Positions 4,051 through 20,732 of a stretch of DNA of 64,000 nucleotides are shown piece by piece (position 1 is the first letter of the stretch; each line of letters begins with the position of its first letter). The DNA lies in the NCBI GenBank assembly GCA_050263095.1, contig JBLNEW010000043.1:986-64985 (forward strand). Reading direction: 5' to 3'. The DNA is from Deltaproteobacteria bacterium. GTDB lineage: Bacteria; Desulfobacterota; Deferrimicrobia; Deferrimicrobiales; Deferrimicrobiaceae. Under the pieces are notes generated by a model that worked only from the letters and a program-made list of their open reading frames with translations, was not told the DNA's origin and did not search any database. The translations under genes and the position numbers were made by a program.

Positions 4051-4920
4051 ATGAAGACGGGCAAAGGGACTGGAAGCATGGCGAAGAGGGCGGGGTATGC
4101 GGTGCTCGCGTTGTGCCTTTTGGTGTTGCTGACGGGATCCGCATTTTCGGCGGGCGAATCTCCGGGGATTTTGGGCGCCGTGGACGAGATGAGGGCGGGA
4201 GAACTTTCCCATAAGATGGGCAAGGCAGTCACCGTCCCCGCTTTCGGCTGCCCCGACCTTGCGTACACCGACACATTCAAGGCGAAAGATCTGGGGTACA
4301 TCTATTCGGCCGGCTTCGCGGAGGCCATCAACGCCGTCGCAAGCGGCAATTCCGCGTACTCCCCGCCGGAGATTCCCGCGGGGTGGAAGGCGGCCGCGGT
4401 CGAATGGAGAGAATACCTTGAGGCATACCCGGAAGGAGAGGCGGGGCCGTCCCGTCAGCCCGCATTCACGAACCGCGAGGGCAGGTTCGACATAGAGCCT
4501 CTTCTCTCCAAGGAGGCCTGCACGCCCGCCCTTCTCTACCTGGCATCTCTCGATTATCGGTCGAAGCCCGGGAACAAGGGGGTGGCCCCGGTATTTCCGC
4601 GCATAGTGCGAAACGCCGTCATCGACCTTGGAACGCAGGTCGTCGCGAAGAACCGCATGGCGCCGGCATATGCCAGGCGCGCCGCCACGGTCATGGCCAA
4701 GATTACCGAAGCGGAACGGATGGGCGCGAAGGATTGCCAGCCTGACGAGCTCGCGCAGACGAAGGCCGAGCTGAACCGCGCCCGCGCCGATGCGGCCGGA
4801 GTGAGGAAAGGCGTGCAGGAGACCGATGCGGCGTTCGCCAAGGCGGAAAAGGCGGCCGACTCCCTCCTTACCAAAAGGCAGTTCGCGATGCAGAAGGGCT
4901 TCAAGTGCTATCCGGAGTGA
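4051..4920 (+). CDS. Exported hypothetical protein with C-terminal DUF4398-like helical domain
   Basis: SD GGAGG before ATG 4051; signal peptide YAVLALCLLVLLTGSAFSA; C-terminal AERMGAKDCQPDELAQTKAEL resembles DUF4398. Confidence 0.6.
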   Translation: MKTGKGTGSMAKRAGYAVLALCLLVLLTGSAFSAGESPGILGAVDEMRAGELSHKMGKAVTVPAFGCPDLAYTDTFKAKDLGYIYSAGFAEAINAVASGNSAYSPPEIPAGWKAAAVEWREYLEAYPEGEAGPSRQPAFTNREGRFDIEPLLSKEACTPALLYLASLDYRSKPGNKGVAPVFPRIVRNAVIDLGTQVVAKNRMAPAYARRAATVMAKITEAERMGAKDCQPDELAQTKAELNRARADAAGVRKGVQETDAAFAKAEKAADSLLTKRQFAMQKGFKCYPE

Positions 4921-4953
4921 GGTGATTCCGGCTGGCTGGCTGCCGGGGGAGGG

Positions 4954-5637
4954 TCAGGATTCCTTGACGTGGACGTAATCGCGCAGCCGTGCGCGGTCCA
5001 CGATGAGGTTCCTGCCCTCCCTGCGGATGAGGCCGATCTCCTCGAATTTGTGCAGCTGGATGGTGACGGTCTCCCTGGTGGTACCGATCAGGTTTGCAAG
5101 GTCCTCGTGCGTCAGCTTCAGGGCGATCTTCGTCCCGGTCCGGGTGTCCTCGCCGATGTCTTCGGCCAGATGAAGCAGCTCCTTCGCCAGCCTATGGTAT
5201 GCCCACGCGTGAATGAGGCCCGCGAACTCGCGCTCGACCTCCATCAGCCGGCGCGCCAAAAGCCTCGCGTAGTTCGACGCGAATACCGGGCTGGTGCGCA
5301 GGATTTCAAGGAAGTCTTTGCGTGAAAGGACGCCCGCCTGCACATCGGTCAGTGCGATCGCGGAGAAGGGCCGCTGTCCCTGGACCAGCAGAAGCTCCCC
5401 GAATACGTCGTCCGCGCGAACGATGTGAAGGATCGATTCTGTCCCCCTCTCCGAGAGGGACACGAGCTTCACGAGCCCCTTCCTCACTATGAAAAGGGAA
5501 TCCGCCGGGCCCCCTTCGTAAAACAGGGCGGCGTCGCGGTCGTATTTTCTGTCGGCGAACAGTCCGGCGATCCTCCGGGCTTCCTCCTCCGGGATGCCCT
5601 GGAGCAATTCACCAGCGGTCTGAAAGGGCAGCGGCAC
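4954..5637 (-). CDS. Crp/Fnr family transcriptional regulator (paralog 1)
   Basis: cNMP-fold motifs (LFIVRKGLVKL, FGE), HTH LTHEDLANLIGTTRETVT; GTG start. Confidence 0.93.
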   Translation of the reverse strand: MPLPFQTAGELLQGIPEEEARRIAGLFADRKYDRDAALFYEGGPADSLFIVRKGLVKLVSLSERGTESILHIVRADDVFGELLLVQGQRPFSAIALTDVQAGVLSRKDFLEILRTSPVFASNYARLLARRLMEVEREFAGLIHAWAYHRLAKELLHLAEDIGEDTRTGTKIALKLTHEDLANLIGTTRETVTIQLHKFEEIGLIRREGRNLIVDRARLRDYVHVKES

Positions 5638-5705
5638 GCCCTTATTGTAGTCTTACGGCAATCGGTATTCCATCATCCTCAAAGCGGGATTACGGGATAA
5701 AGAGC

Positions 5706-5762
5706 AGGTCCCGGAGCCCCCGGCGCACCGATCCGTCACGGTCCACCCGGAACTCCGAGACC
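5706..5762 (-). terminator. Stem-loop downstream of small gene 5764-5976
   Basis: AGGTC-C-CGGAG...CTCCG-A-GACCT imperfect inverted repeat; no clear U-tract. Confidence 0.35.
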
Positions 5763-5763
5763 T

Positions 5764-5976
5764 TCAGGCGGCAAGCCGAACCCTCTCCCTGGCGGGAGGA
5801 GCGACCTCGACGGTCCCGGGGATCGGCCACTCGGCCCAAAGCAGCCGGATTCCCGCCTTCTCGGCTTCAGCCATGCCGGCAAGGAGAAGGCCCGCCACGA
5901 TGGCGACGAGGAACAGCAGACAGGTGAACGCAACGCCCAATTCCACGGTCAGGGTCTCGAAGTAGATGCCTTCCAT
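5764..5976 (-). CDS. Small membrane protein (70 aa), paralog family member 1
   Basis: SD GGGGGTGA; one TM helix then MAEAEKAGIRLLWAEWP; ends RLAA; similar to 10670-10879 and 12622-12837. Confidence 0.8.
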   Translation of the reverse strand: MEGIYFETLTVELGVAFTCLLFLVAIVAGLLLAGMAEAEKAGIRLLWAEWPIPGTVEVAPPARERVRLAA

Positions 5977-6000
5977 GGTGTTCACCCCCTTTCCGGCTAC

Positions 6001-6044
6001 AGTCTATTTCGCTACGGGGGGCGGGTTCAGTGAGGAAATTCACA
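6001..6044 (-). promoter_or_regulatory. CRP/HcpR-type box with class II promoter geometry
   Basis: Minus strand TGTGA-ATTTCC-TCACT (6044-6029), 22 nt, then -10 TAGACT (6006-6001). Confidence 0.7.
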
Positions 6045-6135
6045 AATTCGAATATGCTGTTGGCAGCGATTCCCGGGGGCACGTTCGAAAACCCGGTTGC
6101 GGGATCGCGACAGTCGTTGAGATAATCGCGAAACA

Positions 6136-7395
6136 ATGGGCGGAAAACGCATCATGTCGGTAACGCGTTCGGCTTGCCTGCTCCTCGCGCTTGGAGCGGT
6201 CCTGTTGGCCGGATGCGCGGCACCCCGGGCGGCGTACAGGGCGGGAGAAGACCTGCCTTACCCGTCGGATGGGCCGCCGGAGGCGGAGGAGATCCGCCAT
6301 ATCCCCACCGGGCTCAAGCTTTCGCTCGAGGCCGCGATGGACATGGTTTCCGCCGCCCGGTTGATCTGCGTCGGTGAAACGCACGACAACATGCATGCCC
6401 ACCGTGTGGAGCTGATGATCCTCCGCGATCTCCACAGGCGTTTCCCCGGGAAAGTGGCCATCGGCATGGAGATGTTCCGGGAGCCGGAGCAGGCGATCCT
6501 GGACCGTTGGACGAACGGCGAGCTTGCGGAGATCGAGTTCCTGAAGGCCGTGAAATGGTACGAGAACTGGGGATCGGATTTCGGCTACTACAGGGACATC
6601 CTCCGGTTCGCCAGGGAGAACCGGATCGACGTCGTGGCCCTGAACCCTTCGAAGGAGCTCCAGCAGGAAGTCAGGACCTCCGGCCTCGACAACGTCCCCG
6701 CGAAGTTCAAGTCGAAGCTCCCCGAGATCGGCCCGCCCGATCCTTATCAGCGCAAGGCGATGAAGGCGGTCTACGGCGCCCATCTTCGCACGGAGGGGAT
6801 GTTCGACGCGTTCTTCCGGGTGCAGCTGCTCTGGGAGGAGACGATGGCCGTGCGGATCGTCGACTACCTGCGGAGCCCGCGGGGAGAGGGAAAGAAGATG
6901 GTGACCTTCACCGGCGGGTGGCACGTCAAGTACGGATTCGGAATCCCGAAGAAGGTGATCCGCAGGATGCCGATGCCGTACGTAGTGGTCCTGCCGGCGG
7001 AGATCAGCATCCCGGAGGAGAAGAAGGACCAGATGATGGATGTGGATCTTCCGCCGATGCCGCTCCTGCCCGCCGACTTCGTCTGGTGGATCCCCTACGA
7101 GGGGCTGGAGGGAAAGCAGGCGGTAATGGGCATCATGATGGCATCGAAGGACAACGAGGTCGTCGTCGAGGGAGTTGCTCCGGGATCCCCCGCGGAGAAG
7201 GCGGGGATCGCGAAGGGAGACCGGATCGTCGCATTCGACGGGGAGCCCGTGTCAGATGTCACCGACGTGTTCCTCCGCGTCAGGGAGAAGAAGCACGGAG
7301 ACGAGGCGTCGGTGGCGGTCATCCGGGGCGGCGGGGAAAAAACGCTTAATGTGAGGTTCTTCCCCATTCCCGGGAAGAAGCCTCACCCGGATTAG
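6136..7395 (+). CDS. ChaN-family (haem-binding uptake/TIKI-like) lipoprotein with C-terminal PDZ domain
   Basis: Lipobox LLAGC; CVGETHDNMHAH, IGMEMF, QLLWEETMA, GGWHV; PDZ motif GSPAEKAGIAKGDRIVAFDG; start may be 6154. Confidence 0.85.
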   Translation: MGGKRIMSVTRSACLLLALGAVLLAGCAAPRAAYRAGEDLPYPSDGPPEAEEIRHIPTGLKLSLEAAMDMVSAARLICVGETHDNMHAHRVELMILRDLHRRFPGKVAIGMEMFREPEQAILDRWTNGELAEIEFLKAVKWYENWGSDFGYYRDILRFARENRIDVVALNPSKELQQEVRTSGLDNVPAKFKSKLPEIGPPDPYQRKAMKAVYGAHLRTEGMFDAFFRVQLLWEETMAVRIVDYLRSPRGEGKKMVTFTGGWHVKYGFGIPKKVIRRMPMPYVVVLPAEISIPEEKKDQMMDVDLPPMPLLPADFVWWIPYEGLEGKQAVMGIMMASKDNEVVVEGVAPGSPAEKAGIAKGDRIVAFDGEPVSDVTDVFLRVREKKHGDEASVAVIRGGGEKTLNVRFFPIPGKKPHPD

Positions 7396-7399
7396 GGCT

Positions 7400-8107
7400 T
7401 CAGCCGGCGCCTGCGCCGCGCATCCGCATCTCGTCGTGGCGGCCGAACTCCTCGAGCCGCTTCCTGTCGACGACGAGGAAGCCTTCCTCGCGTTTCACCA
7501 GCCCCATGCGCCGGAACTTGTTCAGCTGGGTCGTTACCGTTTCCCGAGTGGTCCCGATCAGGTTCGCGATGTCCTCGTGGGTCAGACGCAGGGGGATCAG
7601 GGTCCCCTTCGGGGTCTCCTGCCCGTGCTCGTCGCACAGTTCCAGCAGGACTCTCGAGAGGCGGTGGTAGGACCAGGTGTGCCCGAAGTCCGCGAACTCC
7701 CTTTCCACCTTCGCCAGCCGCCTCGACAGCAGACTGATGAAATTCCTCGATACGATGGGAATGGAGGTCAGCAGCTCCACAAGGCTGCCCTTGGGGATGA
7801 CGGTAACCGCGACGTCGGTGCCCGCGATTGCGGTCAGGGCCCTTCTCTCCTCGGAGAGCAGGAGCTCCCCGAAGATCGCCCCGGACTTCAGGATGTGGAG
7901 GATCGTCTCCGTCCCCTTGTCCGAGAGGGAGAGGATCCTCACCCTCCCGTCCTTGACGATGTAAAGCGAATCGGCCGAATCGCCTTTTGAGAAGATGGTC
8001 GCGCCTTTGCGATACCGCCGCTCGGCGCAAAGCCGTTCTATCCTGTGGGCTTCGGATTCGGTGACCCCCCTGAACAGCTCGGCGGCCGTGTGGAAGGTGA
8101 GCGGCAT
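7400..8107 (-). CDS. Crp/Fnr family transcriptional regulator (paralog 2)
   Basis: LYIVKDGRVRI, FGELLL, HTH LTHEDIANLIGTTRETVT; aligns end to end with 4954-5637. Confidence 0.93.
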   Translation of the reverse strand: MPLTFHTAAELFRGVTESEAHRIERLCAERRYRKGATIFSKGDSADSLYIVKDGRVRILSLSDKGTETILHILKSGAIFGELLLSEERRALTAIAGTDVAVTVIPKGSLVELLTSIPIVSRNFISLLSRRLAKVEREFADFGHTWSYHRLSRVLLELCDEHGQETPKGTLIPLRLTHEDIANLIGTTRETVTTQLNKFRRMGLVKREEGFLVVDRKRLEEFGRHDEMRMRGAGAG

Positions 8108-8113
8108 GACCCT

Positions 8114-8143
8114 ACTTTACAGCCGCCTCCATGGACAGTTCAA
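8114..8143 (-). promoter_or_regulatory. Putative sigma70 promoter of Crp paralog 2 (probably leaderless mRNA)
   Basis: TTGAAC-N18-TAAAGT, then 6 nt to ATG 8107; no SD. Confidence 0.55.
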
Positions 8144-8165
8144 CCGGCCAGGTTCCATTGCGCTC

Positions 8166-8525
8166 TCACGCCGCCTTGCGGTGTGCCGGCGCTCCGTGCG
8201 CTATCTCCTGCTTCCCTTCCGTCCGCGTTTCCTTCGACTCCGCGATGCCGGAACCCCGCCCCCTGCCCCCGATGCGCACGAGCACGATCAAGGCGAGCAG
8301 CCCGGGAAGGAGCGAAAAGGAAGCCGACCGCAGCGCTTCAAGCGGATCGAATGCGGAAAGAACGAACGGCGCGGCTTCGACGGGATACGCGCCCAAAGCG
8401 ACCGGGCCCGCCCACATCAGCCATTCGGGATCCGCCACCAGAAGGAGGAATGCATAGACGACAAAAAAGGTCCCGACGAAAAGTACCTCCGCCGTCGTTC
8501 CCCATTTTCCCTTGAGAGGTTTCAT
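8166..8525 (-). CDS. Small membrane protein (119 aa), hypothetical
   Basis: ATG 8525 after purine-rich RBS; two hydrophobic segments; ends RKAA; preceded by CRP-like box. Confidence 0.6.
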   Translation of the reverse strand: MKPLKGKWGTTAEVLFVGTFFVVYAFLLLVADPEWLMWAGPVALGAYPVEAAPFVLSAFDPLEALRSASFSLLPGLLALIVLVRIGGRGRGSGIAESKETRTEGKQEIAHGAPAHRKAA

Positions 8526-8583
8526 GCCTCTTGCCTCTTTCCCGGCCCTCCTTCCGTGCCGCCTCGTTCCCGGGCCTGTCTTC

Positions 8584-8626
8584 ACGGTAACGGATCGCCG
8601 CAGGGGCTTCCGTGAAAGCTTTTACA
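8584..8626 (-). promoter_or_regulatory. CRP/HcpR-type box with class II promoter geometry
   Basis: Minus strand TGTAA-AAGCTT-TCACG (8626-8611), 21 nt, then -10 TACCGT (8589-8584). Confidence 0.6.
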
Positions 8627-8684
8627 CACGGGAAAACAAGGCACCTCCCGGGGAGGGTGTGGGAGGCTTCACTCCAAACGCAGA

Positions 8685-8713
8685 GCGGGGAGGTTCGACG
8701 AGAACCTCCCCGC
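8685..8713 (-). terminator. Hairpin terminator downstream of MFS gene
   Basis: Perfect 12-bp stem GCGGGGAGGTTC/GAACCTCCCCGC with 5-nt loop. Confidence 0.65.
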
Positions 8714-8748
8714 GGAGCTGTTGCTGTTTCCAGGGATCGGGTCCCTGT

Positions 8749-9990
8749 TCAGGCTGCCGCCTTCGCCGGCTCCATCCTTGTCTCCGCCGGACGCCGGGCG
8801 AGCATCTCGAAGCCCAGCGCGACGAGGCAGATCACGGCGCCGGTGTAGAAGGCGTACTGGTAGTTTCCGTAGATGTCGAACATGCGGCCGCCGATGCGCG
8901 GGCCGATGAGCCCGGCCACGCCCCACGCCGTGAAGAGCAGGCCGTAGTTCACTCCCACGTTCTTGGTGCCCCAGAAGTCGGCCGCCGTGGAAGCGTTCAC
9001 CGAGAGCTGCGTCCCGTAGCACCAGTAAACCGCGAACACGAGGATATACAGTGCCGAGACGCTGGACCCCACATGGTACAGGAGGAACATGGCCACGACC
9101 GAGATCCCGATCATCAGGCGCAAGACGTTCAGGCGGCCGAGGTGGTCGGACATCCAGCCCGAGAGGATCCGGCCCGATGCATTGCCGGCCGCCCCGACGA
9201 AGATCGCCGTCGTCGCCAACGTGAGCGAGTGTCCTTGCGCCTGGGCGAACGGAACGAGCTGGCTGATTACCATGAGGCCCGCCGACGTGCCGAGAGCGTA
9301 CGCCAGCCACAGGAAATAGAAGCCGCGCGTCCTGACCACCTCGGACGGTGTGTACTCATATAGCGTGCCGGCGGCCTTGGTGGCCGGGGACGGCACCCAG
9401 CCGGCCGGTTTGTAGCCTGGTTTCGGATTCTGCAGAAGGTACGTAGCGATCATCCCCATGACGAAGAAGATGATACCGAACGCAAAGAAGGTGGTCCGCC
9501 ATCCGTACGTGGGGATCAGCAAGTTGCCCCCCAGAGGGCCGAAGATCGCCGATCCCCCCCCGTATCCCGCGACCGCCAACCCGACCGCGAGGCCCCTCTT
9601 GTCGGGGAACCACTTGGACATAACGGGGATCGGGGTTGCGTAGCCGAAGCCCTGGCCGGTGGCCGCCACGACGCCCAGCCAGAACACGATCCAGCCGATG
9701 CTGTCGGTGTAGCCGGCCATGAAGAATCCGATTGCGTTCAGGGTGGCGCCGATGAACGACACTTTCGTCGGCCCCAATTTGTCCTGGATCCGCCCGCCTA
9801 CGATGAAGGTGACCCCAAATACCGCGACCAGGACCATGAATATGATCGAAACGTCCGCCCGCGTCCATCCGAACTCCTTCTGTATAGGCGCAACAAAAAT
9901 ACTCCATGCATACACGGCGCCGAGGGCAAGGTTCATCGACAGCCCCCCCACGATGCGCCACCACCGGTTCAATCCCGTCTGCCCATCCAT
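8749..9990 (-). CDS. MFS transporter, oxalate/formate antiporter (OFA) family
   Basis: GAVYAWSIF, GRIQDKLGP, KWFPDKRGLAVG, GRILSGWMSDHLGR, GVNYGLLFTAWG; about 12 TM; SD GGAGG before ATG 9990. Confidence 0.9.
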   Translation of the reverse strand: MDGQTGLNRWWRIVGGLSMNLALGAVYAWSIFVAPIQKEFGWTRADVSIIFMVLVAVFGVTFIVGGRIQDKLGPTKVSFIGATLNAIGFFMAGYTDSIGWIVFWLGVVAATGQGFGYATPIPVMSKWFPDKRGLAVGLAVAGYGGGSAIFGPLGGNLLIPTYGWRTTFFAFGIIFFVMGMIATYLLQNPKPGYKPAGWVPSPATKAAGTLYEYTPSEVVRTRGFYFLWLAYALGTSAGLMVISQLVPFAQAQGHSLTLATTAIFVGAAGNASGRILSGWMSDHLGRLNVLRLMIGISVVAMFLLYHVGSSVSALYILVFAVYWCYGTQLSVNASTAADFWGTKNVGVNYGLLFTAWGVAGLIGPRIGGRMFDIYGNYQYAFYTGAVICLVALGFEMLARRPAETRMEPAKAAA

Positions 9991-10086
9991 GGCCTCCCCT
10001 CCATTTCTCCGCGGCTCGCCGCGGAATGCGTTTAAGAAGCCGACTTCCCCATATTCATCTTTATAGCGGACTCTGCCGGGGAGTTC

Positions 10087-10125
10087 TGTGAAACCTTTCA
10101 CGTTGTCGCTGCGAAAGGTTTCACG
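10087..10125. promoter_or_regulatory. Two tandem CRP/HcpR-type boxes between divergent MFS and DUF488 genes
   Basis: TGTGA-AACCTT-TCACG (10087-10102) and TGCGA-AAGGTT-TCACG (10110-10125); TATAAA lies 21 nt downstream of box 1 on the minus strand. Confidence 0.7.
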
Positions 10126-10247
10126 GAAGCTGGCAGGCGGGCTGGAGGTCCCGGGAGCTGCCGTTGGAACCGGCCGTCCCCTTTTCTTATCTTACGGGGG
10201 TAAAGGAAGGCATCCGGAAAGGCGAGTTCCGTGAAAGGAGGAACGGG

Positions 10248-10601
10248 ATGATTCGTATCAAGCGGGTCTACGAAAAGCCGGACCCTTCCGACGAAATCCG
10301 GATCCTCGTCGATCGCCTTTGGCCCCGGGGAGTGAGCAAGGCCGCTGCCCGGATCGACGAGTGGAGGAAGGACCTCGCCCCGACGGACGCCCTGCGGAAG
10401 TGGTTCAACCACGATCCGCGGAAATGGGAGGAGTTCCGTCTGCGCTACCGCAACGAACTCGATGCATCGAGAAAAATGGAGGATCTTAAAGAACTGGCCG
10501 GACGGGTGAAGACGGAAACCGTGACCCTGCTGTACGCCGCGCACGACAAGACGCGCAACAACGCCGTTGCTCTCAAGAAGATCATCGAGAAGTTCCTGTA
10601 G
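10248..10601 (+). CDS. DUF488 / YeaO family protein
   Basis: MIRIKRVYE...RILVDRLWPRGVSK...WRKDLAPT..LRKWFNHDP.KWEEF..RY; NNAVALK; SD AGGAGG. Confidence 0.9.
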   Translation: MIRIKRVYEKPDPSDEIRILVDRLWPRGVSKAAARIDEWRKDLAPTDALRKWFNHDPRKWEEFRLRYRNELDASRKMEDLKELAGRVKTETVTLLYAAHDKTRNNAVALKKIIEKFL

Positions 10602-10613
10602 GGCCGGTCTGAT

Positions 10614-10650
10614 GGCCGGGAGGTTCCCAGTGAAGGGAATCCCCCCGGCC
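10614..10650. terminator. Hairpin between convergent genes
   Basis: GGCCGGGAGGTTCCC-agtgaa-GGGAATCCCCCCGGCC. Confidence 0.6.
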
Positions 10651-10669
10651 CGCCATGCTTGTGATGCCT

Positions 10670-10879
10670 TCAAGCCGCCAGGCGGATCTCTTCCTCCGTC
10701 TCGGGTTCGTCGGCTTCAGGAAGCGGCCACTCCGCCCAATACAGGCGGTTCCCTCTGCTCTCCTCCTCGGACATGTGCCCGAAAAGGACTGCGCTCACCA
10801 CGATCGCGAGCAGGGCCACTTCGGCCAGGTACGCGAAGCTGGATCCGATGAACTCAGTTCCCAGTGCGAAGATTTCCAT
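10670..10879 (-). CDS. Small membrane protein (69 aa), paralog family member 2
   Basis: SD GGGGGTGA; TM helix then MSEEESRGNRLYWAEWP; ends RLAA. Confidence 0.8.
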   Translation of the reverse strand: MEIFALGTEFIGSSFAYLAEVALLAIVVSAVLFGHMSEEESRGNRLYWAEWPLPEADEPETEEEIRLAA

Positions 10880-10932
10880 GATCTTCACCCCCTTTCCCTC
10901 TGACCGTAAGATAACGTGGAGAGGAGATCGAT

Positions 10933-10966
10933 TGTGAAAGGTCGAACGGAAATGATATTTTTCACG
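10933..10966. promoter_or_regulatory. Two degenerate CRP/HcpR-type boxes
   Basis: TGTGA-AAGGTC-GAACG (10933-10948) and AATGA-TATTTT-TCACG (10951-10966) between divergent small gene and folE. Confidence 0.45.
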
Positions 10967-11009
10967 GAGGGAGCCAAAACAGGTTTCTCCGCCGCTCCCG
11001 GGAGGACCG

Positions 11010-11678
11010 ATGAGTTCGGACGGCGACCATGAGCACAGGAAAATCCTGCCGGGCATGAGTGCGAACCGCCCGCGCGTTCCGGAAGACCGGATTCGTAAGT
11101 TCGAAGGCTACATGGAGGAAATCTTCTCGGCTTTCGGGATGGATCTTGACACCCCGGCCACGCGGGACACCCCGCGGCGGTTTCTCCGGGCGATGCAGGA
11201 CAGCACCGAAGGGTACGAGGGCGACCCGAAGCTGATCACGGTGTTCGATACCGAGTGCCGCGGAGGGCCGGACTGCCGGCTCAGCCAGATCGTGGAAGGT
11301 CCGATTCCGTTCTTCAGCCTCTGCGAGCACCACGCGCTTCCGTTCTACGGCCGCGCCTATGTGGGGTACATCGCCCACGAGCAGATCATCGGCCTGTCGA
11401 AGCTCACGCGGCTCGTGCGCCTCTATGCGAAACGGTTCACCGTGCAGGAGCGGATCGGCCAGCAGATCGCCGACTCCCTGGACGCGATGCTCCGTCCGCA
11501 TGGCGTTGCGGTGTACCTCGACGCTCACCACCTGTGCACCCAGATGAGGGGGGTCCGGGAGACGGCTCCGCTGACACGCACGACGTTCTGGCGCGGGAAT
11601 TACGAAAGCGACCCGGCCCTTCGGACCGAGTTCTACGTGGCATGCGGGCTGCACCGGTTCGAAGCCGGGACCCGGTAG
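11010..11678 (+). CDS. folE: GTP cyclohydrolase I
   Basis: DTPRR, SLCEHHALPFYG, IIGLSKLTRLV, QER, HLCTQMRG zinc ligands. Confidence 0.9.
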   Translation: MSSDGDHEHRKILPGMSANRPRVPEDRIRKFEGYMEEIFSAFGMDLDTPATRDTPRRFLRAMQDSTEGYEGDPKLITVFDTECRGGPDCRLSQIVEGPIPFFSLCEHHALPFYGRAYVGYIAHEQIIGLSKLTRLVRLYAKRFTVQERIGQQIADSLDAMLRPHGVAVYLDAHHLCTQMRGVRETAPLTRTTFWRGNYESDPALRTEFYVACGLHRFEAGTR

Positions 11679-11691
11679 GCGGCGGGATGCG

Positions 11692-12540
11692 ATGCTTCCC
11701 CTGACGCCCCTGGAATCCCTCTTCGAAACGGGGCAGGGGGAGGAGCTTCCCCTCCCCCGCGAACTGTCGGCGCTCTACGGTCCTCTCCGCTTCCCGGCGC
11801 GCAGGGGCCGCAGGTACGTAATAGGCAATTTCGTGACCACGCTTGACGGCGTCGCGTCCCTCTCCGACCCCGTGCTGCCGGGAGGAGGCCCCATCAGCGG
11901 TTCCAACCCGCACGACAGGATGGTGATGGGCCTGCTTCGGGCCGTCGCCGACGCCGTGATCGTCGGCGCCGGTACGCTGCGCTCGGTCCCCCGTCACCTT
12001 TGGACGGCCGAGCACATCTTCCCGGCTCTGGCCGACCCGTACCGCCGGCTTCGGGCCGCGCTGGGGAAGACCGCTCCGCCCTTGAACGTCATCGTAACAG
12101 CGCGCGGCGAAATCGACCCGGGCCTTCCGGTTTTCCGGTCCGGGGACGTAAAGACTCTCGTCGTCACAACGCCGGCAGGCGCCCGGAAGGTCCGTGAAAG
12201 GGGCTTTTCCGGGGCGGTCGGGATCGAGGAAGTGAACGGTGCGGCCGGGGTCGGCGCCCGGGAAATTCTGTCCGCGATCGACCGTGTCCTGCCCGGGAAA
12301 TTATTCCTTGTCGAGGGGGGGCCGCGGTTGATGGGGGATTTCTTCGCCGAGAAATGCCTGGACGAGCTTTTCTTGACGCTAGCTCCGCAGGTTGCCGGCA
12401 GGGACGGGGCCGCAGAGCGTCCTGGATTCGTCTCAGGCAAGCGCTTTGCGCCGGAGCGCCCTCTCTGGGGAACGCTTGCCGGCGCAAAACGCGGCGGCAG
12501 CCATCTGTTTTTAAGGTATGCATTCGCCGCTGAAGAATGA
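11692..12540 (+). CDS. RibD C-terminal / dihydrofolate reductase-fold protein
   Basis: NFVTTLDG, LRAVADAVIVGAGTLR, LVEGGPRL, LDELFLTLAP. Confidence 0.88.
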   Translation: MLPLTPLESLFETGQGEELPLPRELSALYGPLRFPARRGRRYVIGNFVTTLDGVASLSDPVLPGGGPISGSNPHDRMVMGLLRAVADAVIVGAGTLRSVPRHLWTAEHIFPALADPYRRLRAALGKTAPPLNVIVTARGEIDPGLPVFRSGDVKTLVVTTPAGARKVRERGFSGAVGIEEVNGAAGVGAREILSAIDRVLPGKLFLVEGGPRLMGDFFAEKCLDELFLTLAPQVAGRDGAAERPGFVSGKRFAPERPLWGTLAGAKRGGSHLFLRYAFAAEE

Positions 12541-12562
12541 TCTCCCGGCGGGATCCTGCGGG

Positions 12563-12602
12563 AAAAAAACCGGGGGATTGCCCGGTTCGGCAACCCCCCG
12601 GG
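12563..12602 (-). terminator. Intrinsic terminator of small gene 12622-12837
   Basis: CCGGGGGATTGCC/GGCAACCCCCCGG stem with A7 on plus strand (U-tract on minus). Confidence 0.7.
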
Positions 12603-12621
12603 TCGGGGGCGATCGGCAAAG

Positions 12622-12837
12622 TTACGCGGCCTTAGGATACTTGACGCCCTCCACCGGCGCGGATTCGCCGATGTCCGTAAACGGGGATTCTGCCCAGAAG
12701 ACCGGGTTTCCCTTGGATTCCTCGTCGGCCATGTTGCCGAGAAGGATGCCGCACGCCGCGATAACCAACAGCGCAAGCCCGCACAGCGCGGCAATCGGAG
12801 AACCGAACAGTTCGATGTCGAAAAGGATGCCTTCCAT
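12622..12837 (-). CDS. Small membrane protein (71 aa), paralog family member 3
   Basis: SD AGGAGGTGA; TM helix then MADEESKGNPVFWAESP; ends PKAA. Confidence 0.8.
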   Translation of the reverse strand: MEGILFDIELFGSPIAALCGLALLVIAACGILLGNMADEESKGNPVFWAESPFTDIGESAPVEGVKYPKAA

Positions 12838-12865
12838 CTTTCTCACCTCCTTCCTTTCTGATCCC

Positions 12866-12908
12866 ACTATAGGGCCGGGCGCGGAAGTGGTCTGTGCAAC
12901 CTTTCACA
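12866..12908 (-). promoter_or_regulatory. CRP/HcpR-type box with class II promoter geometry
   Basis: Minus strand TGTGA-AAGGTT-GCACA (12908-12893), 21 nt, then -10 TATAGT (12871-12866); also overlaps the -35 region of a divergent promoter (TGcTATTCT at 12922-12930). Confidence 0.75.
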
Positions 12909-12983
12909 TTGCCCCCCCCGGTGCTATTCTCAATCGTTGACTGCACCGGCAAGCTCCGCGCGGGCATGACGGTCCTGGAGGGA

Positions 12984-13325
12984 ATGATGCCGTTCATCGT
13001 CCGGATGGGCGCCAGCGCCATCGCAATCCTGATAATCGCGTACCTGCTCCCGTCGGTGATGTCGGCCGACGGTCCGATGGCGGCGCTGGCTGCCGCTTTC
13101 GTGCTGGGATTGGTCAACGCGATTATCCGGCCGGTTTTCGTCCTCCTCACGCTCCCGGTAACCGTAGCGACTCTCGGGATATTCCTCGTCGTGATAAACG
13201 GACTGCTTCTTTGGCTCGTATCCGCGATCGTCCCCGGCGTCCACGTCAACGGGTTCCTCGGGGCCGTTGCGGGCTCGCTGCTCATCAGCGCAATCTCGTG
13301 GATCCTTACGAGGGTCGTTCCATGA
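12984..13325 (+). CDS. YvlD-like 4-TM membrane protein (phage holin superfamily IV)
   Basis: VLGLVNAIIRPVFVLLTLPVTVATLGIFLVVINGLLLWL. Confidence 0.85.
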   Translation: MMPFIVRMGASAIAILIIAYLLPSVMSADGPMAALAAAFVLGLVNAIIRPVFVLLTLPVTVATLGIFLVVINGLLLWLVSAIVPGVHVNGFLGAVAGSLLISAISWILTRVVP

Positions 13326-14722
13326 GCGTCTCCATCCGGTTTTTGGGCGGCGTGCGCGAGGTGACCGGCTCGTGCATCCTGCTGCAGTCCGGCCGAGCCA
13401 GGTTCCTGGTCGACTGCGGGATGTTCCAGGGCGGGTCGGAGAGCGACCGGAAGAACGCCCGTCCTTTCGCCGTTCCCCCTTCCTCGATCGATTTCGTCCT
13501 TTCCACCCACGCCCATATCGACCATTCCGGGCTGCTCCCCAAGGTAGTGCACGACGGATTCAAGGGGAGGATTTACGCCACTCCGGCGACGGCCGACCTG
13601 TTGAGGGTGATGCTTCCGGATTCCGGACACATCCAGGAGAGGGAGGCGGAGTGGCAGACGCGGAGGGCGATGCGGGCGGGGAATCGCGACGGACGACCTC
13701 TTTACACCGAAGCGGATGCCCTGGCGGTTCTTCCGCGCCTGGAACCGGTTCCTTACGGAAAAGGGTTCGAGCCCGCGCCAGGCATCCGTGTCCGCTTCCT
13801 GGACGCGGGGCATATTCTGGGATCGGCGATCGTGTGCGTCTCGATCAGGGACGGCGGCAGGGACAGGGAACTCGTCTTCACCGGGGACCTCGGCCACCGG
13901 GGCCTTCCCATAGTGCGGGATCCGGCGCCCGTAGAGAAGGCCGACGTCCTCGTCATGGAGTCCACCTACGGGAACCGGGTTCACAAGGGTATGGAGCAGT
14001 CGATAGAAGAGTTCCTGCACGCCGTGACGGACACTCTCGGCCGGAAAGGCGGAAACGTGATCATTCCCGCCTTCGCCGTGGGCCGCGCCCAGGACATACT
14101 TTACCTGTTAGCCGACCTGACCCGCCAGGGAAGGATTTCCGGGATCACGCTGTACATAGACTCGCCGCTGGCGGCGCAGGCCACGCAGATTACCCTTCGC
14201 CACCCGGAATGCTTCGATGACAGCACGCGACGGGCGCTGGCATGGAAGGAGGCGCACCCCGACCGGTTCCGGGTCGTCGTCACCGCGAGCGCCGAGGAGT
14301 CGATGGCGCTTAATTCAATGCGTGGAGGCGGGATCATAATGGCGGGCAGCGGGATGTGCGAGGCCGGGAGGATAAAGCATCACCTCAAGCACAATCTATG
14401 GCGCAAGGAGTCCAGCATCGTCATCGTCGGTTTCCAGGCGGCGGGGACGCTCGGCCGCAAGATAGTCGACGGAGCTAAATATGTCCGTGTTCTTGGGGAA
14501 GACATCGCGGTGGCGGCCGACATCTACACGATCGGAGGGCTGTCGGCGCACGCGGACCGGGACGATCTGCTGGCCTGGGCCGGCGGATTCCGCTCGCCGC
14601 CTGAGCAGGTCTTCGTGGCCCACGGCGAGGAATCCGTTTCCCTTGGTTTCGCGCAGGAGCTGCGCGGCCGCCTCAAGTGGAACGCCGAGGTTCCGGTTCC
14701 AGGGCAGCCGCTGGAGGTCTGA
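13322..14722 (+). CDS. MBL-fold metallo-hydrolase, beta-CASP RNA-processing family
   Basis: EVTGSC, LVDCG, THAHIDHSG, AGHILGSA, ESTYG, PAFAVGR, SAHAD, HGE. Confidence 0.92.
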   Translation: MSVSIRFLGGVREVTGSCILLQSGRARFLVDCGMFQGGSESDRKNARPFAVPPSSIDFVLSTHAHIDHSGLLPKVVHDGFKGRIYATPATADLLRVMLPDSGHIQEREAEWQTRRAMRAGNRDGRPLYTEADALAVLPRLEPVPYGKGFEPAPGIRVRFLDAGHILGSAIVCVSIRDGGRDRELVFTGDLGHRGLPIVRDPAPVEKADVLVMESTYGNRVHKGMEQSIEEFLHAVTDTLGRKGGNVIIPAFAVGRAQDILYLLADLTRQGRISGITLYIDSPLAAQATQITLRHPECFDDSTRRALAWKEAHPDRFRVVVTASAEESMALNSMRGGGIIMAGSGMCEAGRIKHHLKHNLWRKESSIVIVGFQAAGTLGRKIVDGAKYVRVLGEDIAVAADIYTIGGLSAHADRDDLLAWAGGFRSPPEQVFVAHGEESVSLGFAQELRGRLKWNAEVPVPGQPLEV

Positions 14723-14800: not shown

Positions 14801-15316
14801 ATGAAGGCAGCGAAGAAAATGAAGATCGTTCGGGGGATCGAGCCGATCCCCAAGGGATTTCATACAGTTACACCATGCCTGATGGTCCGCGGCGCGGACC
14901 GCGCTTTGGAGTTCTACAGGAAGGCGTTCGGGGCTGAAGTGCTCGACCGACTGACCGGCCCGGACGGCAAGTCGGTCATCCACGCGCAGATCAAGGTCGG
15001 GGACTCGTTCATTTTCCTTGGCGACGAAGTCCCGGGCATGGAGGGCGGCGCCCCCGAGAAATACGGAGGCTCGCCGGCGTCGCTCCACCTGTACGTCGAA
15101 GACGTGGACGCCGCGGTCGAACGGGCGGTGACGGCCGGCGCGCAGGTCCGGATGCCGGTCGCGGACATGTTCTGGGGGGATCGCTACGCCAAGGTCGCCG
15201 ACCCGTTTGGGTACGAATGGGGGCTTGCCACCCGCAAGGAGGACTTGACCCCCGAAGAGATCCGCCGCGGTGCCGAGGAGTTCTTCAAAAAACAATCGGG
15301 CGGCGGCCATCAGTGA
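14801..15316 (+). CDS. VOC/glyoxalase family protein (PhnB-like)
   Basis: PKGFHTVTPCL, FYRKAFGA, LYVEDVDA, DMFWGDRY...DPFGYEW. Confidence 0.9.
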   Translation: MKAAKKMKIVRGIEPIPKGFHTVTPCLMVRGADRALEFYRKAFGAEVLDRLTGPDGKSVIHAQIKVGDSFIFLGDEVPGMEGGAPEKYGGSPASLHLYVEDVDAAVERAVTAGAQVRMPVADMFWGDRYAKVADPFGYEWGLATRKEDLTPEEIRRGAEEFFKKQSGGGHQ

Positions 15317-15362
15317 ACCGCGACGTGCAGTGAATCGCCGAAAGCCGGGCGGCGGGGGCAGG

Positions 15363-16211
15363 GTGGATCGAAAAAGCTTCGTCGCGTTCCTTTTCCTTGC
15401 CTGGTGCGCCGCAACATTCGCCGGGGCGCCCGGCGCGCTGGGTCATGTACGGGAAACCCCGGAAGATATCCTGAAACAGATCGGCGTTGACGAGAATCCG
15501 GGGGGACAGGTTCCCCCCGGACTCGCCTTTCGAAACGAGGAAGGGAAAACGGTCCTGGTCGGGGATTTCTTCGTGAAGGGGCCGGTCGTCCTCACGCTCA
15601 ATTATTACACCTGTCCCATGCTATGTCCCCTGACCCTGCGCAACCTGCTGTCATCTGCGGAAGCAGTGGGCGGGATATCGCTCGAACGCGATTTCCGGAT
15701 CGTGACCGTCAGCATCGATCCCGACGAGATGCCCGAGGCGGCGCGCGCCCGGGCCGACGAAATGCACGGGATGATGAAGTCGGCCGGCCCCCCCGGTGCC
15801 AGATGGGCGTTCCTTTACGGAGGCCGGGAGGAAATCGCGAAGCTGACCGCAGCCGTGGGATTCCGTTACCGGAAGCTGGAAAACGAGTTCGCCCATCCCA
15901 ACGTCGTCGTGGTTCTCACGCAAGGCGGGAAGATTTCCCGGTACCTGTACGGGATCGAGCAGGACCCGCGTGACCTGCGGCTGGCTCTCATCGAGGCGGC
16001 CGGCGGGAGGATAGGGGAGTCGCCGAACGTCAACCGGGCGCTGCTGTACTGCTTCCATTACGACCCGGTCGCGAAAAAATACGCGCTATACGCCAGGAAC
16101 ATCATGAAGGCGGGCGGCATTTTCACTCTTGTCTTGCTGGGGTCTTTGTATTTAGCCTTGTGGAAGCGCCGAAAACCAAGGACCCTTGCGGGTCGATCGG
16201 GGGATGGATGA
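15363..16211 (+). CDS. SCO family copper chaperone for cytochrome c oxidase
   Basis: YYTCPMLC (CxxxC), SIDP, FAH, ISRYLYG, C-terminal TM; GTG start inferred. Confidence 0.88.
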   Translation: MDRKSFVAFLFLAWCAATFAGAPGALGHVRETPEDILKQIGVDENPGGQVPPGLAFRNEEGKTVLVGDFFVKGPVVLTLNYYTCPMLCPLTLRNLLSSAEAVGGISLERDFRIVTVSIDPDEMPEAARARADEMHGMMKSAGPPGARWAFLYGGREEIAKLTAAVGFRYRKLENEFAHPNVVVVLTQGGKISRYLYGIEQDPRDLRLALIEAAGGRIGESPNVNRALLYCFHYDPVAKKYALYARNIMKAGGIFTLVLLGSLYLALWKRRKPRTLAGRSGDG

Positions 16212-17203
16212 CGAACGCGTACGCGTCGGGCGAGGCGGCTTCGCGGTCCGCCCTCCAGATAGACGCCGTCTTTTTCTTCATAACGGCGGTTTCTCTCTTT
16301 TTCTTCTTCCTGGTCGAAGGGCTTCTCATTTATTTCGCCATACGATACCGCAGGAGGAAGGCCTCGGAGGACGCTGCGACCTCGGAGGTCAAGAGTCACC
16401 TCGTACTTGAAATCGTGTGGGTGATCATACCCTCCCTCGTAGTGCTGGCTTTTTTCGCCTACGGATACGTCGTTTATCGGGACGTCACCACGCCGGCCCC
16501 CGGCTCGAGCGACATAAACGTCATGGCCCGCCAGTTCTCGTACGAGTTCAAGTATCCCGACGGCCATACCACCGTCGACCTGCTGCGGCTGCCCGTCGGA
16601 AAGCCGGTCAAGCTGATCATGACCTCGCAGGACGTCCTCCACGGGTTCTTCCTCCCCGACTTCCGGCTCAAGCAGGACGTCGTGCCGGGGCAATACACCT
16701 ACCTTTACCTGCATCCCGACAAGGAGGGGACATACGACATCTTCTGCACGCAATATTGCGGGGTGGGACATTCCACGATGCGGGGCAAGCTCGTCGTGAT
16801 GTCCGCGGTCGATTATGCGAAATGGGCGCAGGCCGCGAAAACCGCGGGGGCCGCCCGGTCGCTTCCCGAGAAGGGGAAGGAACTGCTTTCGAAATCCGGC
16901 TGCCTGGGATGCCATTCCATCGACGGAAGCGTCAAGATCGGTCCGACCTTCAAGGGGCTTTACGGCAGGGAATCGCACCTTGAAGGGGATCGCGAGGTCT
17001 ATGCGGACGAGGAATACATCCGTGAATCGATCTACGACCCGGGAGCCAGGATAGTAAAGGGTTTTCCCAACGTCATGCCGACCTTCAAGGGGCGTCTCTC
17101 CGACGACGACATCGCCGCGATAATCGCATACCTGAAAACGCTTCCGGGCGGGGATTCGGAGCGGGAGAAGGAAAAAAAGGAGAGGGGGGAGAGGAAAAAG
17201 TAA
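16208..17203 (+). CDS. coxB: Cytochrome c oxidase subunit II with C-terminal cytochrome c domain (caa3 type)
   Basis: LEIVWVIIP, DVLHGF, CuA motif CTQYCGVGHSTM, heme motif CLGCH; ATG 16208 overlaps sco stop. Confidence 0.93.
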   Translation: MTNAYASGEAASRSALQIDAVFFFITAVSLFFFFLVEGLLIYFAIRYRRRKASEDAATSEVKSHLVLEIVWVIIPSLVVLAFFAYGYVVYRDVTTPAPGSSDINVMARQFSYEFKYPDGHTTVDLLRLPVGKPVKLIMTSQDVLHGFFLPDFRLKQDVVPGQYTYLYLHPDKEGTYDIFCTQYCGVGHSTMRGKLVVMSAVDYAKWAQAAKTAGAARSLPEKGKELLSKSGCLGCHSIDGSVKIGPTFKGLYGRESHLEGDREVYADEEYIRESIYDPGARIVKGFPNVMPTFKGRLSDDDIAAIIAYLKTLPGGDSEREKEKKERGERKK

Positions 17204-17299
17204 CGAGAAAGGGCGATTAGCCGCCAGCCGGCACGCAACCTTATTGCGCATGACGACATCGCATACGGTGAAAATCGTAATAACGGCGGGAGATGAGGA

Positions 17300-18940: not shown

Positions 18941-19556
18941 TCATACGGTACACCCGGAAATGGCCGCGGAGGGATCCGGCCACGCGCACATGGATCCGGC
19001 GCAGGCGTACGACGCCGCAAAGCTGGGGATATGGACTTTCCTTGCGACCGAGGTCCTGCTGTTCGGCGGGCTTTTCACGGCTTACATCGTCTTCCGCCTC
19101 AAGTTCCCGGAGATGTTCCGGATCGACCATGCCCACCTGAACCGGATCATGGGAGCGACCAACACGGTCGTCCTCATATGCAGCAGCCTGACCGTGGCGC
19201 TCGGCATCGCGGCCGTACGGAAGGGGAAGCAGGGGCTGCTCAAACTTTATCTTGCCCTGACGATCCTCCTGGCGGCGGTGTTCCTCGGGATAAAGTACGT
19301 GGAGTGGAACGAGAAGTTCGCCCACGGGCTGTTCCCCGACACCGACGTGTTCTTCTCCCTTTACTTCGTGATGACGGGGCTGCACGGTCTCCACGTCCTG
19401 GGAGGCATGCTGGTTCTCGGAGGCGTTCTGGCGCTTGCGTGGCGGGGAAAATTTTCGGAGCGTTATTATACGCCGGTGGAAGTTTCCGGTTTATACTGGC
19501 ACTTCGTGGACCTTGTATGGATCTACCTGTTCCCCCTGTTCTACCTTATAGGGTAG
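18933..19556 (+). CDS. coxC: Cytochrome c oxidase subunit III
   Basis: GIWTFLATEVLLFGGLF, MTGLHGLHV, GLYWHFVDLVWI. Confidence 0.95.
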   Translation: MSDHTVHPEMAAEGSGHAHMDPAQAYDAAKLGIWTFLATEVLLFGGLFTAYIVFRLKFPEMFRIDHAHLNRIMGATNTVVLICSSLTVALGIAAVRKGKQGLLKLYLALTILLAAVFLGIKYVEWNEKFAHGLFPDTDVFFSLYFVMTGLHGLHVLGGMLVLGGVLALAWRGKFSERYYTPVEVSGLYWHFVDLVWIYLFPLFYLIG

Positions 19557-19563
19557 GAGAGCC

Positions 19564-19842
19564 ATGAAGAGCTCGCACGGCACGGGTTACGGAATCTACC
19601 TGGCGGTCTTTGCGGCCCTGCTGGTCTTGACCGGGGCGACCGTCGCGGTATCCTACATCGACCTGGGGGTAATGAACGTCGCCGTCGCCCTGCTCATCGC
19701 GTCGCTCAAGGCCTCTCTCGTCGCGCTGTTCTTCATGCACCTGAAGTTCGAGAACAAGCTCGTCTGGGCGTTTGCGCTGGTCCCGATCTTCTTCCTGGTG
19801 CTCATCGTCGGGGGGACGATCTCGGATACCCTGTACCGCTGA
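19564..19842 (+). CDS. coxD: Cytochrome c oxidase subunit IV
   Basis: ALLIASLKASLVALFFMHLK. Confidence 0.9.
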   Translation: MKSSHGTGYGIYLAVFAALLVLTGATVAVSYIDLGVMNVAVALLIASLKASLVALFFMHLKFENKLVWAFALVPIFFLVLIVGGTISDTLYR

Positions 19843-19860
19843 AAATCCAAGGAGGCAATC

Positions 19861-20721: not shown

Positions 20722-20732
20722 AACCGCTGACC

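Follow-up and report, generated by a model that had tools for sequence, protein, structure and literature searches.

Three genes of about 70 codons lie dispersed over some 7 kb of a 64,000-nucleotide stretch from a Deltaproteobacteria bacterium (contig JBLNEW010000043.1; the whole stretch is called the window below), and the question raised by this locus is what kind of protein they encode and what controls them. An initial annotation of this DNA had described the products as an unrecognised family of single-pass membrane proteins that might tune a larger membrane complex. On the evidence of their conservation, the three open reading frames (ORFs), here termed small A, small B and small C, are real genes of a lineage-restricted family of single-pass membrane microproteins, whose expression is probably governed by the CRP-family regulators encoded beside them.

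5764..5976, minus strand: small A, a protein of 70 amino acids (aa); A-type clade, in which the gene always immediately precedes a Crp1 ortholog
10670..10879, minus strand: small B, 69 aa; B-type clade
12622..12837, minus strand: small C, 71 aa; C-type clade, with WAESPF in the motif and the end YPKAA; present in RNA-library contigs of three studies
4954..5637, minus strand: Crp1, a cysteine-less CRP-family regulator (cNMP_binding and HTH_Crp_2 domains), 126 nucleotides (nt) downstream of small A
7400..8107, minus strand: Crp2, a cysteine-less paralog 52% identical to Crp1, downstream of a gene for a 119-aa membrane protein

A translation check returned stop-free ORFs at 5764-5976, 10670-10879 and 12622-12837, as first annotated, and BLASTP related the copies in each pairing (E-values 2e-10, 4e-10 and 7e-16), copy A being 41% and 39% identical to the other two. 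Their end-to-end alignment has 17 invariant columns, among them M1, E2, M35, E39, G42, W47-A48-E49, P51 and the final two alanines, and it showed that the features listed initially (ME start, single hydrophobic stretch, conserved motif and Ala-Ala end) are indeed common to A, B and C. Moreover, a Shine-Dalgarno site as strong as had been claimed, either GGGGGTGA or GGAGGTGA, was found 6-8 nt 5' of every ATG. A profile search of the whole 2.46-Mb assembly detected exactly three copies of the family, A, B and C.

No family in Pfam or NCBIfam matched the A, B or C proteins at E ≤ 1 and PADLOC had no match to them, while the lone PHROGs match (phrog_14690, E = 0.079) and the best result of a PDB profile search (7zc2, E = 0.9) were taken as noise. 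All of the 30 nearest clusters in the ESM Atlas are unnamed and without a common Pfam family, and the papers listed for the WAEWP motif or for Deferrimicrobia, the latter judged from titles and the starts of abstracts, included none on these microproteins. The family is therefore as unrecognised as had been supposed, in that no usable match exists in Pfam, NCBIfam, PHROGs, PADLOC or PDB, and it is new to the curated libraries and searchable literature examined.

A profile built from the three sequences recovered 274 relatives at E ≤ 0.01 among 537 candidates, every one of them labelled hypothetical or unnamed and none with a precomputed Pfam domain; a 122-sequence profile run against 1.84 billion representatives gave 73 matches at E ≤ 1e-3 and 40 at E ≤ 1e-10. 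The profile matches included no fusion to a larger or other domain, and the seven longer ones inspected (105-196 aa) are apparently mis-called starts, frameshifts or, for one weak match, an unrelated repeat protein. Start, stop and length are conserved over 194 family proteins. The ratio of nonsynonymous to synonymous substitutions (dN/dS) ranged from 0.146 to 0.712 in 25 of 25 ortholog pairs with at least 60% identity, so the selection that the initial annotation had deduced from the conserved motif is purifying.

A tree of 26 copies places A, B and C in three separate clades (support 98/97, 96/90 and 99/96), each of which also contains other genera. The paralogs are therefore ancient and have been kept, in agreement with the earlier remark that the copies are too diverged for a recent duplication. 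Counting this genome, 15 of 41 relatives have a family match; without it, the positive ones are 11 of 24 in the taxonomic family f1 and 3 of 7 in the sister family f2, and none of the 9 genomes from nine further families has a match. Four positives, this genome included and all of them in f1 or f2, came from an evenly drawn set of 401 genomes of the phylum, and the closest named record (L022) is 97% identical to copy A. The profile search against genomes that the initial annotation had proposed thus gave a copy number of three here and a range of f1 and f2, and the microproteins were found only in these two related families of the phylum, which probably belong to Deferrimicrobia.

What controls these genes? 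The initial annotation had claimed a CRP-like box upstream of each copy, and boxes were found before all three (6029-6044, 10933-10948 and 12893-12908), as well as before the gene of the 119-aa membrane protein and a gene of the major facilitator superfamily (MFS).

6029..6044: CRP-type box of small A; 9 of 10 consensus bases, start 68 nt before the ATG, in the region between small A and a divergent ChaN-PDZ gene
10933..10948: CRP-type box of small B; position weight matrix (PWM) score 17.5 bits, between small B and a divergent GTP cyclohydrolase I gene
12893..12908: CRP-type box of small C; 23.1 bits, with TATAGT (12871-12866) 21 nt downstream in a class-II-like layout
8611..8626: CRP-type box of the 119-aa protein gene; 20.9 bits, with TACCGT 21 nt downstream
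10087..10125: two tandem CRP-type boxes of the MFS gene, with scores of 23.4 and 18.0 bits and centres 23 bp apart; sites at 10087 and 10110

Across the family, a TGTGA-N6-TCACA box with at least 7 of 10 consensus bases starts between -67 and -76 from the ATG in 22 of 26 genes. Three of the remaining four, all from f2, carry a perfect box at -130 to -139, and the fourth (L036_11863) has no box above 6 of 10. When a stricter box (at least 8 of 10 bases, starting between -80 and -64) was counted, it was present in 16 of the 26 genes, whereas 300 shuffles averaged 0.09 such genes and never gave more than 1; at the same position it occurs in just 2 of 1803 other upstream regions of this genome.

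The order of elements before small C is the box, 21 nt, TATAGT and then a leader of ~25 nt bearing the Shine-Dalgarno site, and a TATAAA hexamer likewise lies 21 nt downstream of the proximal box of the MFS gene. Class II CRP/FNR-dependent promoters carry a site whose centre is near -41.5 relative to the transcription start and which overlaps the -35 position. A -10-like hexamer 21 nt past the box, as in the small C, MFS and 119-aa genes, would place the box centre near -41; the combination of box and -10-like hexamer with no -35 element is therefore class-II-like in its predicted geometry. The likeness extends to the 16-bp palindrome itself and to the regulators encoded here, which have the R-E recognition helix of CRP proper. 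Unlike with the known class II promoters, however, the regulon here appears to be confined almost only to the regulator's own locus.

Crp1 and Crp2 have among their nearest solved relatives the CRP of M. tuberculosis, a Crp-family regulator of Thermus, NtcA and E. coli CAP. The 66 members of their subfamily share an invariant recognition helix (R-E-T-V-T), a near-invariant N-terminal M-P-L-P-F and the lack of any cysteine. To examine how these regulators and the microproteins are distributed, we compared their occurrence among relatives: Crp1 matches above 200 bits (at least 44% identity) are present in 14 of 15 family-positive and in 0 of 26 family-negative genomes, the best scores in the latter being 160 and 146 bits. 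The sole positive genome without such a match, G031, is 86% complete and has a weak family hit only. A prediction set beforehand for genus g2 gave the same picture, with the family-positive G334 and G404 carrying Crps of 48-53% identity beside their family genes and the family-negative G280, G308 and G005 having Crp matches of at most 31% identity. Moreover, in 13 of 17 positive genomes a family gene lies less than 200 nt from such a Crp on the same strand; in f1 the A-type gene always precedes the Crp1 ortholog, whereas in f2 the order is the reverse. Boxes, co-occurrence and adjacency thus bind the family to its neighbouring Crp paralogs far more tightly than the initial annotation could see. 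Because of this adjacency and co-occurrence, and of the invariant R-E-T-V-T helix, we infer that the boxes of the family are bound and activated by these Crp paralogs.

Each copy had also been described as a monocistronic unit with a downstream hairpin. This holds best for small C, which is followed by a canonical intrinsic terminator called in our scan:

12570..12601 (12601-12570), minus strand: intrinsic terminator 3' of small C, with a 13-bp stem, 10 GC pairs and a T7 tail

The hairpins of A and B were seen by eye and were not called by the scan. For small A a monocistronic unit is plausible, since the spacer to Crp1 (5638-5763) and its orthologous counterparts have a GC-rich hairpin after the stop codon and, ~45 nt ahead of the start of Crp1, a conserved TAGAAT or TGGAAT element that could serve Crp1 as a -10 of its own; on the other side, one RNA-library contig bridges small A and Crp1. 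The small A-Crp1 spacers gave no conserved RNA fold (consensus energy -0.55 kcal/mol), and the best result of an Rfam scan of 4900-13400 was 21.6 bits against a gathering score of 70.

The extent of the regulon was estimated with a weight matrix made from 20 distinct family sites, counting genome hits of at least 12 bits. This returned 25 hits in 2.46 Mb, of which the top five and one at 12.9 bits are all located within 6029-12908 of the window. In five other genomes (~13 Mb) there are 9 sites with the exact consensus and none with a reversed control pattern; 6 of the 9 sites flank a family gene, its Crp or the MFS gene, two of the other three are orthologous to each other and lie within a large ORF, and the last stands before a MetY-like gene. 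The regulon thus appears, as far as these site searches predict, to be essentially this 7-kb locus, and family and box together make up a compact module. Apart from the microproteins and regulators, the genes next to the boxes in this part of the window include the following.

8749..9990, minus strand: SfMCT-type L-lactate MFS transporter (NF049980, 387.8 bits against a cut-off of 320); end KAAA
8166..8525, minus strand: 119-aa membrane protein; ORF open to 8585, with an AAGAGG-like Shine-Dalgarno site before the probable ATG at 8525; end RKAA
6136..7395, plus strand: ChaN/Tiki-like lipoprotein with a C-terminal PDZ domain, divergent from small A

Given this SfMCT-type carrier, monocarboxylate uptake is the physiology to consider. 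The 119-aa membrane protein had no family match; its orthologs were found only in G001 (85%), G002 (55%) and, weakly, G023, and its position directly upstream of Crp2 mirrors that of small A and Crp1. The ChaN-PDZ gene recurs near family genes in G001, G002, G013, G015 and G023. Elsewhere in this genome, a rubrerythrin-like ORF (C26:9736-10236, minus strand), its type read from the N-terminal sequence alone, has a weaker box of 14.6 bits (C26:10281) 45 nt upstream; this box was the only off-locus hit that we recognised before a gene of known type.

With regard to the proteins themselves, AlphaFold2 (122-row alignment) modelled a single helix over residues 2-40, with block-mean pLDDT values of 88-98, followed by an unstructured tail over residues 41-70 (block means 46-68). 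In the 153 core-motif members, the 12 residues N-terminal of the hydrophobic stretch contain on average 0.08 K/R and 2.35 D/E, while the 19 residues C-terminal of it contain 2.18 K/R. By the positive-inside rule this poor N-flank and rich C-flank favour an N-out/C-in orientation, which is probably how the microproteins insert. The juxtamembrane motif E-x2-G-x4-W-A-E-[WS]-P is invariant, and the tail that follows it has a median of 18 residues (range 16-47) and is composed of 19% Glu, 19% Ala and 9% Pro.

The most distinctive feature of the tail is its end. The initial annotation had noted a basic-x-AA or KAA end in the three copies, and this was confirmed across the family: 175 of 194 proteins end in Ala-Ala (AA), as do 149 of the 153 core-motif members, 138 of these with K/R at -3 or -4. 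The commonest end is [KR]-L-A-A (n = 71); A and B end in R-L-A-A, and C in P-K-A-A. In the genome background (a crude ORF set) an AA end is found in 31 of 1910 ORFs (1.6%) and [KR]AA or [KR]xAA in just 10, the box-linked MFS and 119-aa proteins among them. Moreover, a [KR]AA(A) end is found on every MFS ortholog of six other loci (55-98% identical), giving 7 of 7 for box-linked carriers, while 2 of 37 other complete MFS homologs of relatives, both from G015, end in AA. The orthologs of the 119-aa protein end in RKAA, and the ChaN-PDZ protein has no such end. A genome-wide link between AA-ended MFS paralogs and the family was discarded, as the MFS paralogs of other positive genomes end in KGA, SRP and the like, except for the two of G015.

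Beyond what had been noted initially, the AA end is common to the co-regulated MFS and 119-aa proteins and matches the ssrA tags of the lineage: the tmRNA tags of five relatives end in QAA, YAA or LAA (tags were taken from relatives because Rfam places the tmRNA of this genome at the cut end of contig C53, and ARAGORN finds none). ClpX is encoded in the assembly (668.8 bits), while FtsH (TIGR01241) was not above cut-off in this 99% complete assembly, its best score being 84 bits. The C-terminus of 12-transmembrane MFS carriers is cytoplasmic. Since the same AA motif stands there, a common reader would be cytoplasmic, which agrees with the N-out/C-in orientation. According to an E. coli study (PMC10862746), a terminal Ala-Ala is critical for strong ClpXP C-degrons, with the consensus [LFYW]-[LAR]-L-A-A, and a preprint on M. 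tuberculosis describes membrane anti-sigma factors with native XXX-Ala-Ala degrons read by ClpX (bioRxiv 10.1101/491043). The microproteins are thus probably short-lived through a C-degron of the ClpX type, as the similarity of their ends suggests.

RNA-library assemblies contain these genes. We used Logan contigs of the RNA-Seq libraries X5, X6 and X7 (three studies, labelled soil metatranscriptomes) at ≥90% identity, and contigs from all three cover small C, small A, the MFS gene, the 119-aa gene and Crp2. Summed contig depths around the two small genes were as follows.

12568-12851, bin of small C: X5 1190, X6 3757, X7 174
12852-13135, next bin: X5 1.7, X6 0.6, X7 0
5752-6035, bin of small A: X5 19, X6 10, X7 12.5
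6036-6319, next bin: X5 0, X6 0, X7 0

A run that is probably DNA (X1) was flat over these bins, at ~7-12. In the three RNA libraries, summed contig depths across the stretch are largest at the MFS gene; the bin of small B has a low contig depth (3-7), which is no evidence of silence. One X6 contig (5370-5972) is the one that bridges Crp1 and small A. Near small C, adapter-ended contigs stop at 12841/12842 (X5, X7), between the Shine-Dalgarno site and the ATG, and a loose contig end at 12858 (X6) falls near the predicted start at ~12859; these ends (12841-12858) could mark a processing site or be a library artefact. Joints at 10748>12826 and 5838>12830 were rejected as rearrangements and read instead as contigs of relatives or as assembly joins between paralogs.

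Taken together, these observations suggest the following sequence of events. Crp1 or Crp2, both cysteine-less and encoded in the same locus, would bind the TGTGA-N6-TCACA box ~21 nt upstream of the -10-like hexamer and activate transcription in the class II manner, and the ~25-nt leader with its near-perfect Shine-Dalgarno site would give high translation. The product would insert N-out/C-in, with a short acidic N-terminus outside, the long helix 2-40 holding the single hydrophobic span, and a disordered acidic tail of ~35 residues in the cytoplasm, exposing the E-x2-G-x4-W-A-E-[WS]-P motif and a [KR]-x-Ala-Ala end that matches the ssrA tags of the lineage. ClpXP would then read this end as a C-degron, so that the pool would be short-lived and would track the activity of the regulator. 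The same AA end on the lactate-type MFS carrier and the 119-aa protein suggests that the membrane output of the whole module may be built transient; if the degron reading is true, this would be a natural example of a regulon of that kind. As a whole, the reading of a dedicated Crp module with abundant N-out/C-in microproteins as its core output, short-lived by a ClpX-type C-degron, fits the evidence best and seems to us evenly poised between being right and being wrong.

Several points weigh against it. The canonical cAMP-contacting motif R-[ST]-A reads R-P-F-S/T-A in these Crps, and their effector may be other than cAMP. Related genomes are not independent, so the co-occurrence of family and regulator rests on about three within-genus contrasts (g1, g2 and g11), and a local regulator can sit next to its target without any protein-protein link. 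The contig depths are flat per contig, sum relatives and cannot rank genes, RNA libraries can contain DNA, and the RNA-contig ends near small C (12841/12842 and 12858) disagree and are mere hints of a transcription start. Two MFS paralogs of this genome without a strong box also end in AA. Furthermore, the E. coli screen reports that terminal Ala-Ala alone is insufficient and that Pro, His, Gly and short polar residues at -3 are disfavoured (PMC10862746). By that rule the R-L-A-A of A and B has favourable upstream residues and the P-K-A-A of C less favourable ones, although the preferences of the host ClpX may differ; the end of copy C and the acidic tails make the strength of the degron uncertain.

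Which other explanations could account for the same observations? The first is an anti-activator or partner switch, in which the tail would bind the adjacent Crp and hold it at the membrane or modulate it, much like an anti-sigma factor with its sigma, removal by ClpXP would reset the system, and a feedback loop would result. The near-perfect co-occurrence and adjacency with a Crp paralog, beside which the microprotein gene lies and with which it is co-inherited, would suit such a switch, and the layout is present twice in the window (box-small A-Crp1 and box-119-aa protein-Crp2), in both cases with a membrane protein ending in [KR]xAA. The near-invariant M-P-L-P-F of the Crps and the invariant juxtamembrane motif of the microproteins also fit, and there are precedents in PipX, which binds the CRP-family regulator NtcA (PMC11850224), and in the membrane anti-sigma factors with XXX-Ala-Ala degrons (10.1101/491043). 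However, the nearest Crp gene is 2.6-4.5 kb away from copies B and C, the family genes of G009 lie at least 85 kb from its Crp, and the existence of three paralogs for two regulators, the very high expression signals and the separate -10-like element before Crp1 fit an output gene better; we therefore regard a partner switch as unlikely.

If the tail did bind Crp, a partner-switch layer would be added to a regulator family that is generally regarded as controlled by small ligands. A bolder version, in which a CRP-family factor is paired with a membrane-tethered, binding "anti-Crp" and all membrane products of the module carry an ssrA-mimic Ala-Ala end and are erased by ClpXP, would amount to a new design; it would be the counterpart in the CRP world of sigma and anti-sigma factors, with ClpXP erasing the whole response once the regulator switches off. 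We consider it rather improbable.

A second alternative is that of an accessory subunit, whose helix would pack on the SfMCT-type lactate transporter or another complex and tune its activity or stability. SLC16 carriers need single-pass ancillary proteins, and the MFS gene, an SfMCT equivalog, carries the same box and is present in the same locus in 7 genomes; RNA-library contigs lie over both the MFS gene and small C, and the consensus has a G-x3-G-like G-I-L-L-G at the cytoplasmic end of the helix. Against this, MFS orthologs of at least 58% identity exist in just 7 genomes (this one included) and 8 of the 15 positive genomes are without one (among them G003, 75% complete), while more distant MFS paralogs are equally frequent in family-negative genomes. 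Conservation, moreover, resides in the cytoplasmic motif and tail, not on a helix face, and Cox genes are near the family only in close relatives. This distribution rules out an obligate MFS subunit and leaves the broader idea doubtful. The proposal of the initial annotation, that the microproteins tune an oxidase, transporter or protease or act as adaptors through WAEWP, found no support here: nearby Cox genes are confined to close relatives, the MFS ortholog was not found in 8 of 15 positive genomes, and FtsH was not above cut-off in the assembly.

Still less probable is a third alternative, in which the AA end would be a ligand, the protein being N-in/C-out and its tail recognised on the periplasmic side, either by a tail-specific protease or by the ChaN/Tiki-PDZ lipoprotein through its PDZ domain. 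PDZ domains bind C-termini, Tsp/Prc degrades ssrA-tagged periplasmic proteins, and the PDZ lipoprotein gene is divergent from small A in the same box region and recurs in five other genomes; but the K/R distribution favours a cytoplasmic tail, the same [KR]AA end is on the MFS C-terminus, which is cytoplasmic in 12-transmembrane carriers, and ChaN-PDZ is found in only 5 of 17 other-genome loci examined. Finally, high-GC genomes are rich in spurious ORFs, but that the ORFs are non-functional and the conserved units RNAs or chance ORFs is hardly credible in view of the dN/dS below 1 in 25 of 25 pairs, the start, stop and length conserved in 194 proteins, the Shine-Dalgarno site on every copy and the lack of an Rfam match (best 21.6 bits against the gathering score of 70). 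A type I toxin, a holin and a small lytic peptide were also considered and set aside, given the strong Shine-Dalgarno site, activator-type promoter and acidic tail and no usable PHROGs, PADLOC or RNA-family match.

Returning to the proposed Crp module with short-lived microproteins as its output, the kind of object involved, a regulon-encoded small membrane protein, is already known. Enterobacteria have regulon-encoded small membrane feedback proteins such as MgrB (PhoQP system), MgtS, AcrZ and PmrR. Like the MgrB-type proteins, the microproteins are single-pass and shorter than 100 aa, their genes are (here by prediction) direct targets of a dedicated regulator, and they may act on a larger membrane partner; unlike them, they show no sequence relation, are associated with a CRP-family regulator and not a two-component system, and form a family with three ancient paralogs, a predicted long acidic cytoplasmic tail and a conserved AA end. 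Annotation routinely overlooks small membrane proteins, and the regulatory context is clear for only a few of them; here an unannotated family of an uncultured soil/sediment lineage comes with a dedicated CRP-type regulator, a nearly self-contained regulon and a conserved end resembling a degradation tag.

Membrane anti-sigma factors with ssrA-like ends (the E. coli RseA fragment, ending VAA, and RsdA, RslA, RskA and RsmA of M. tuberculosis) are similar in being membrane-anchored, encoded beside a transcription factor and endowed with a cytoplasmic (here by prediction) XXX-Ala-Ala that in their case is read by ClpX (10.1101/491043). They differ in having a folded sigma-binding domain and, for RseA, a degron exposed only after intramembrane cleavage, whereas here AA is the native end of a 70-aa microprotein and the neighbouring factor is a Crp. 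PipX resembles the microproteins as a small protein with a CRP-superfamily partner, NtcA (PMC11850224, PMC6243067), which is among the nearer solved relatives of Crp1. Unlike the microproteins, PipX is cyanobacterial, folded and soluble, not membrane-bound, and no sequence similarity between the two was detected. Basigin and embigin are single-pass ancillary proteins of the SLC16 monocarboxylate carriers, and in this they parallel a single-pass protein co-expressed with an SLC16-like lactate carrier; there is, however, no homology, and the microprotein family lacks an MFS ortholog in 8 of 15 positive genomes. What is unusual here is the class of regulator, a regulon nearly limited to the regulator's own locus and a tag-like end on three unrelated membrane proteins of the module, which makes the regulatory design unusual and not a new principle.

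Other genes were observed in the surroundings of the family. For window positions 10164-10601 and 11010-12540 and for L027, L031 and L036, it was noticed that a DUF488 gene adjoins family genes in three genomes and that pterin-related genes are close by, namely GTP cyclohydrolase I and a RibD_C-like reductase in the window and a pterin-4a-carbinolamine dehydratase in G024; these associations may be coincidence. Within 15270-21635, a SCO1-like ORF and the cytochrome c oxidase genes COX1 and COX3 lie some 3 kb from small C and are followed by a UbiA-family prenyltransferase gene (20733-21635); in the window's own genus and in G015, C-type copies have COX2 and SCO1 genes no more than ~3-4 kb away. 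A ClpA/ClpC-like double-AAA+ ATPase of 793 aa is encoded at 22962-25340, ~10 kb from small C.

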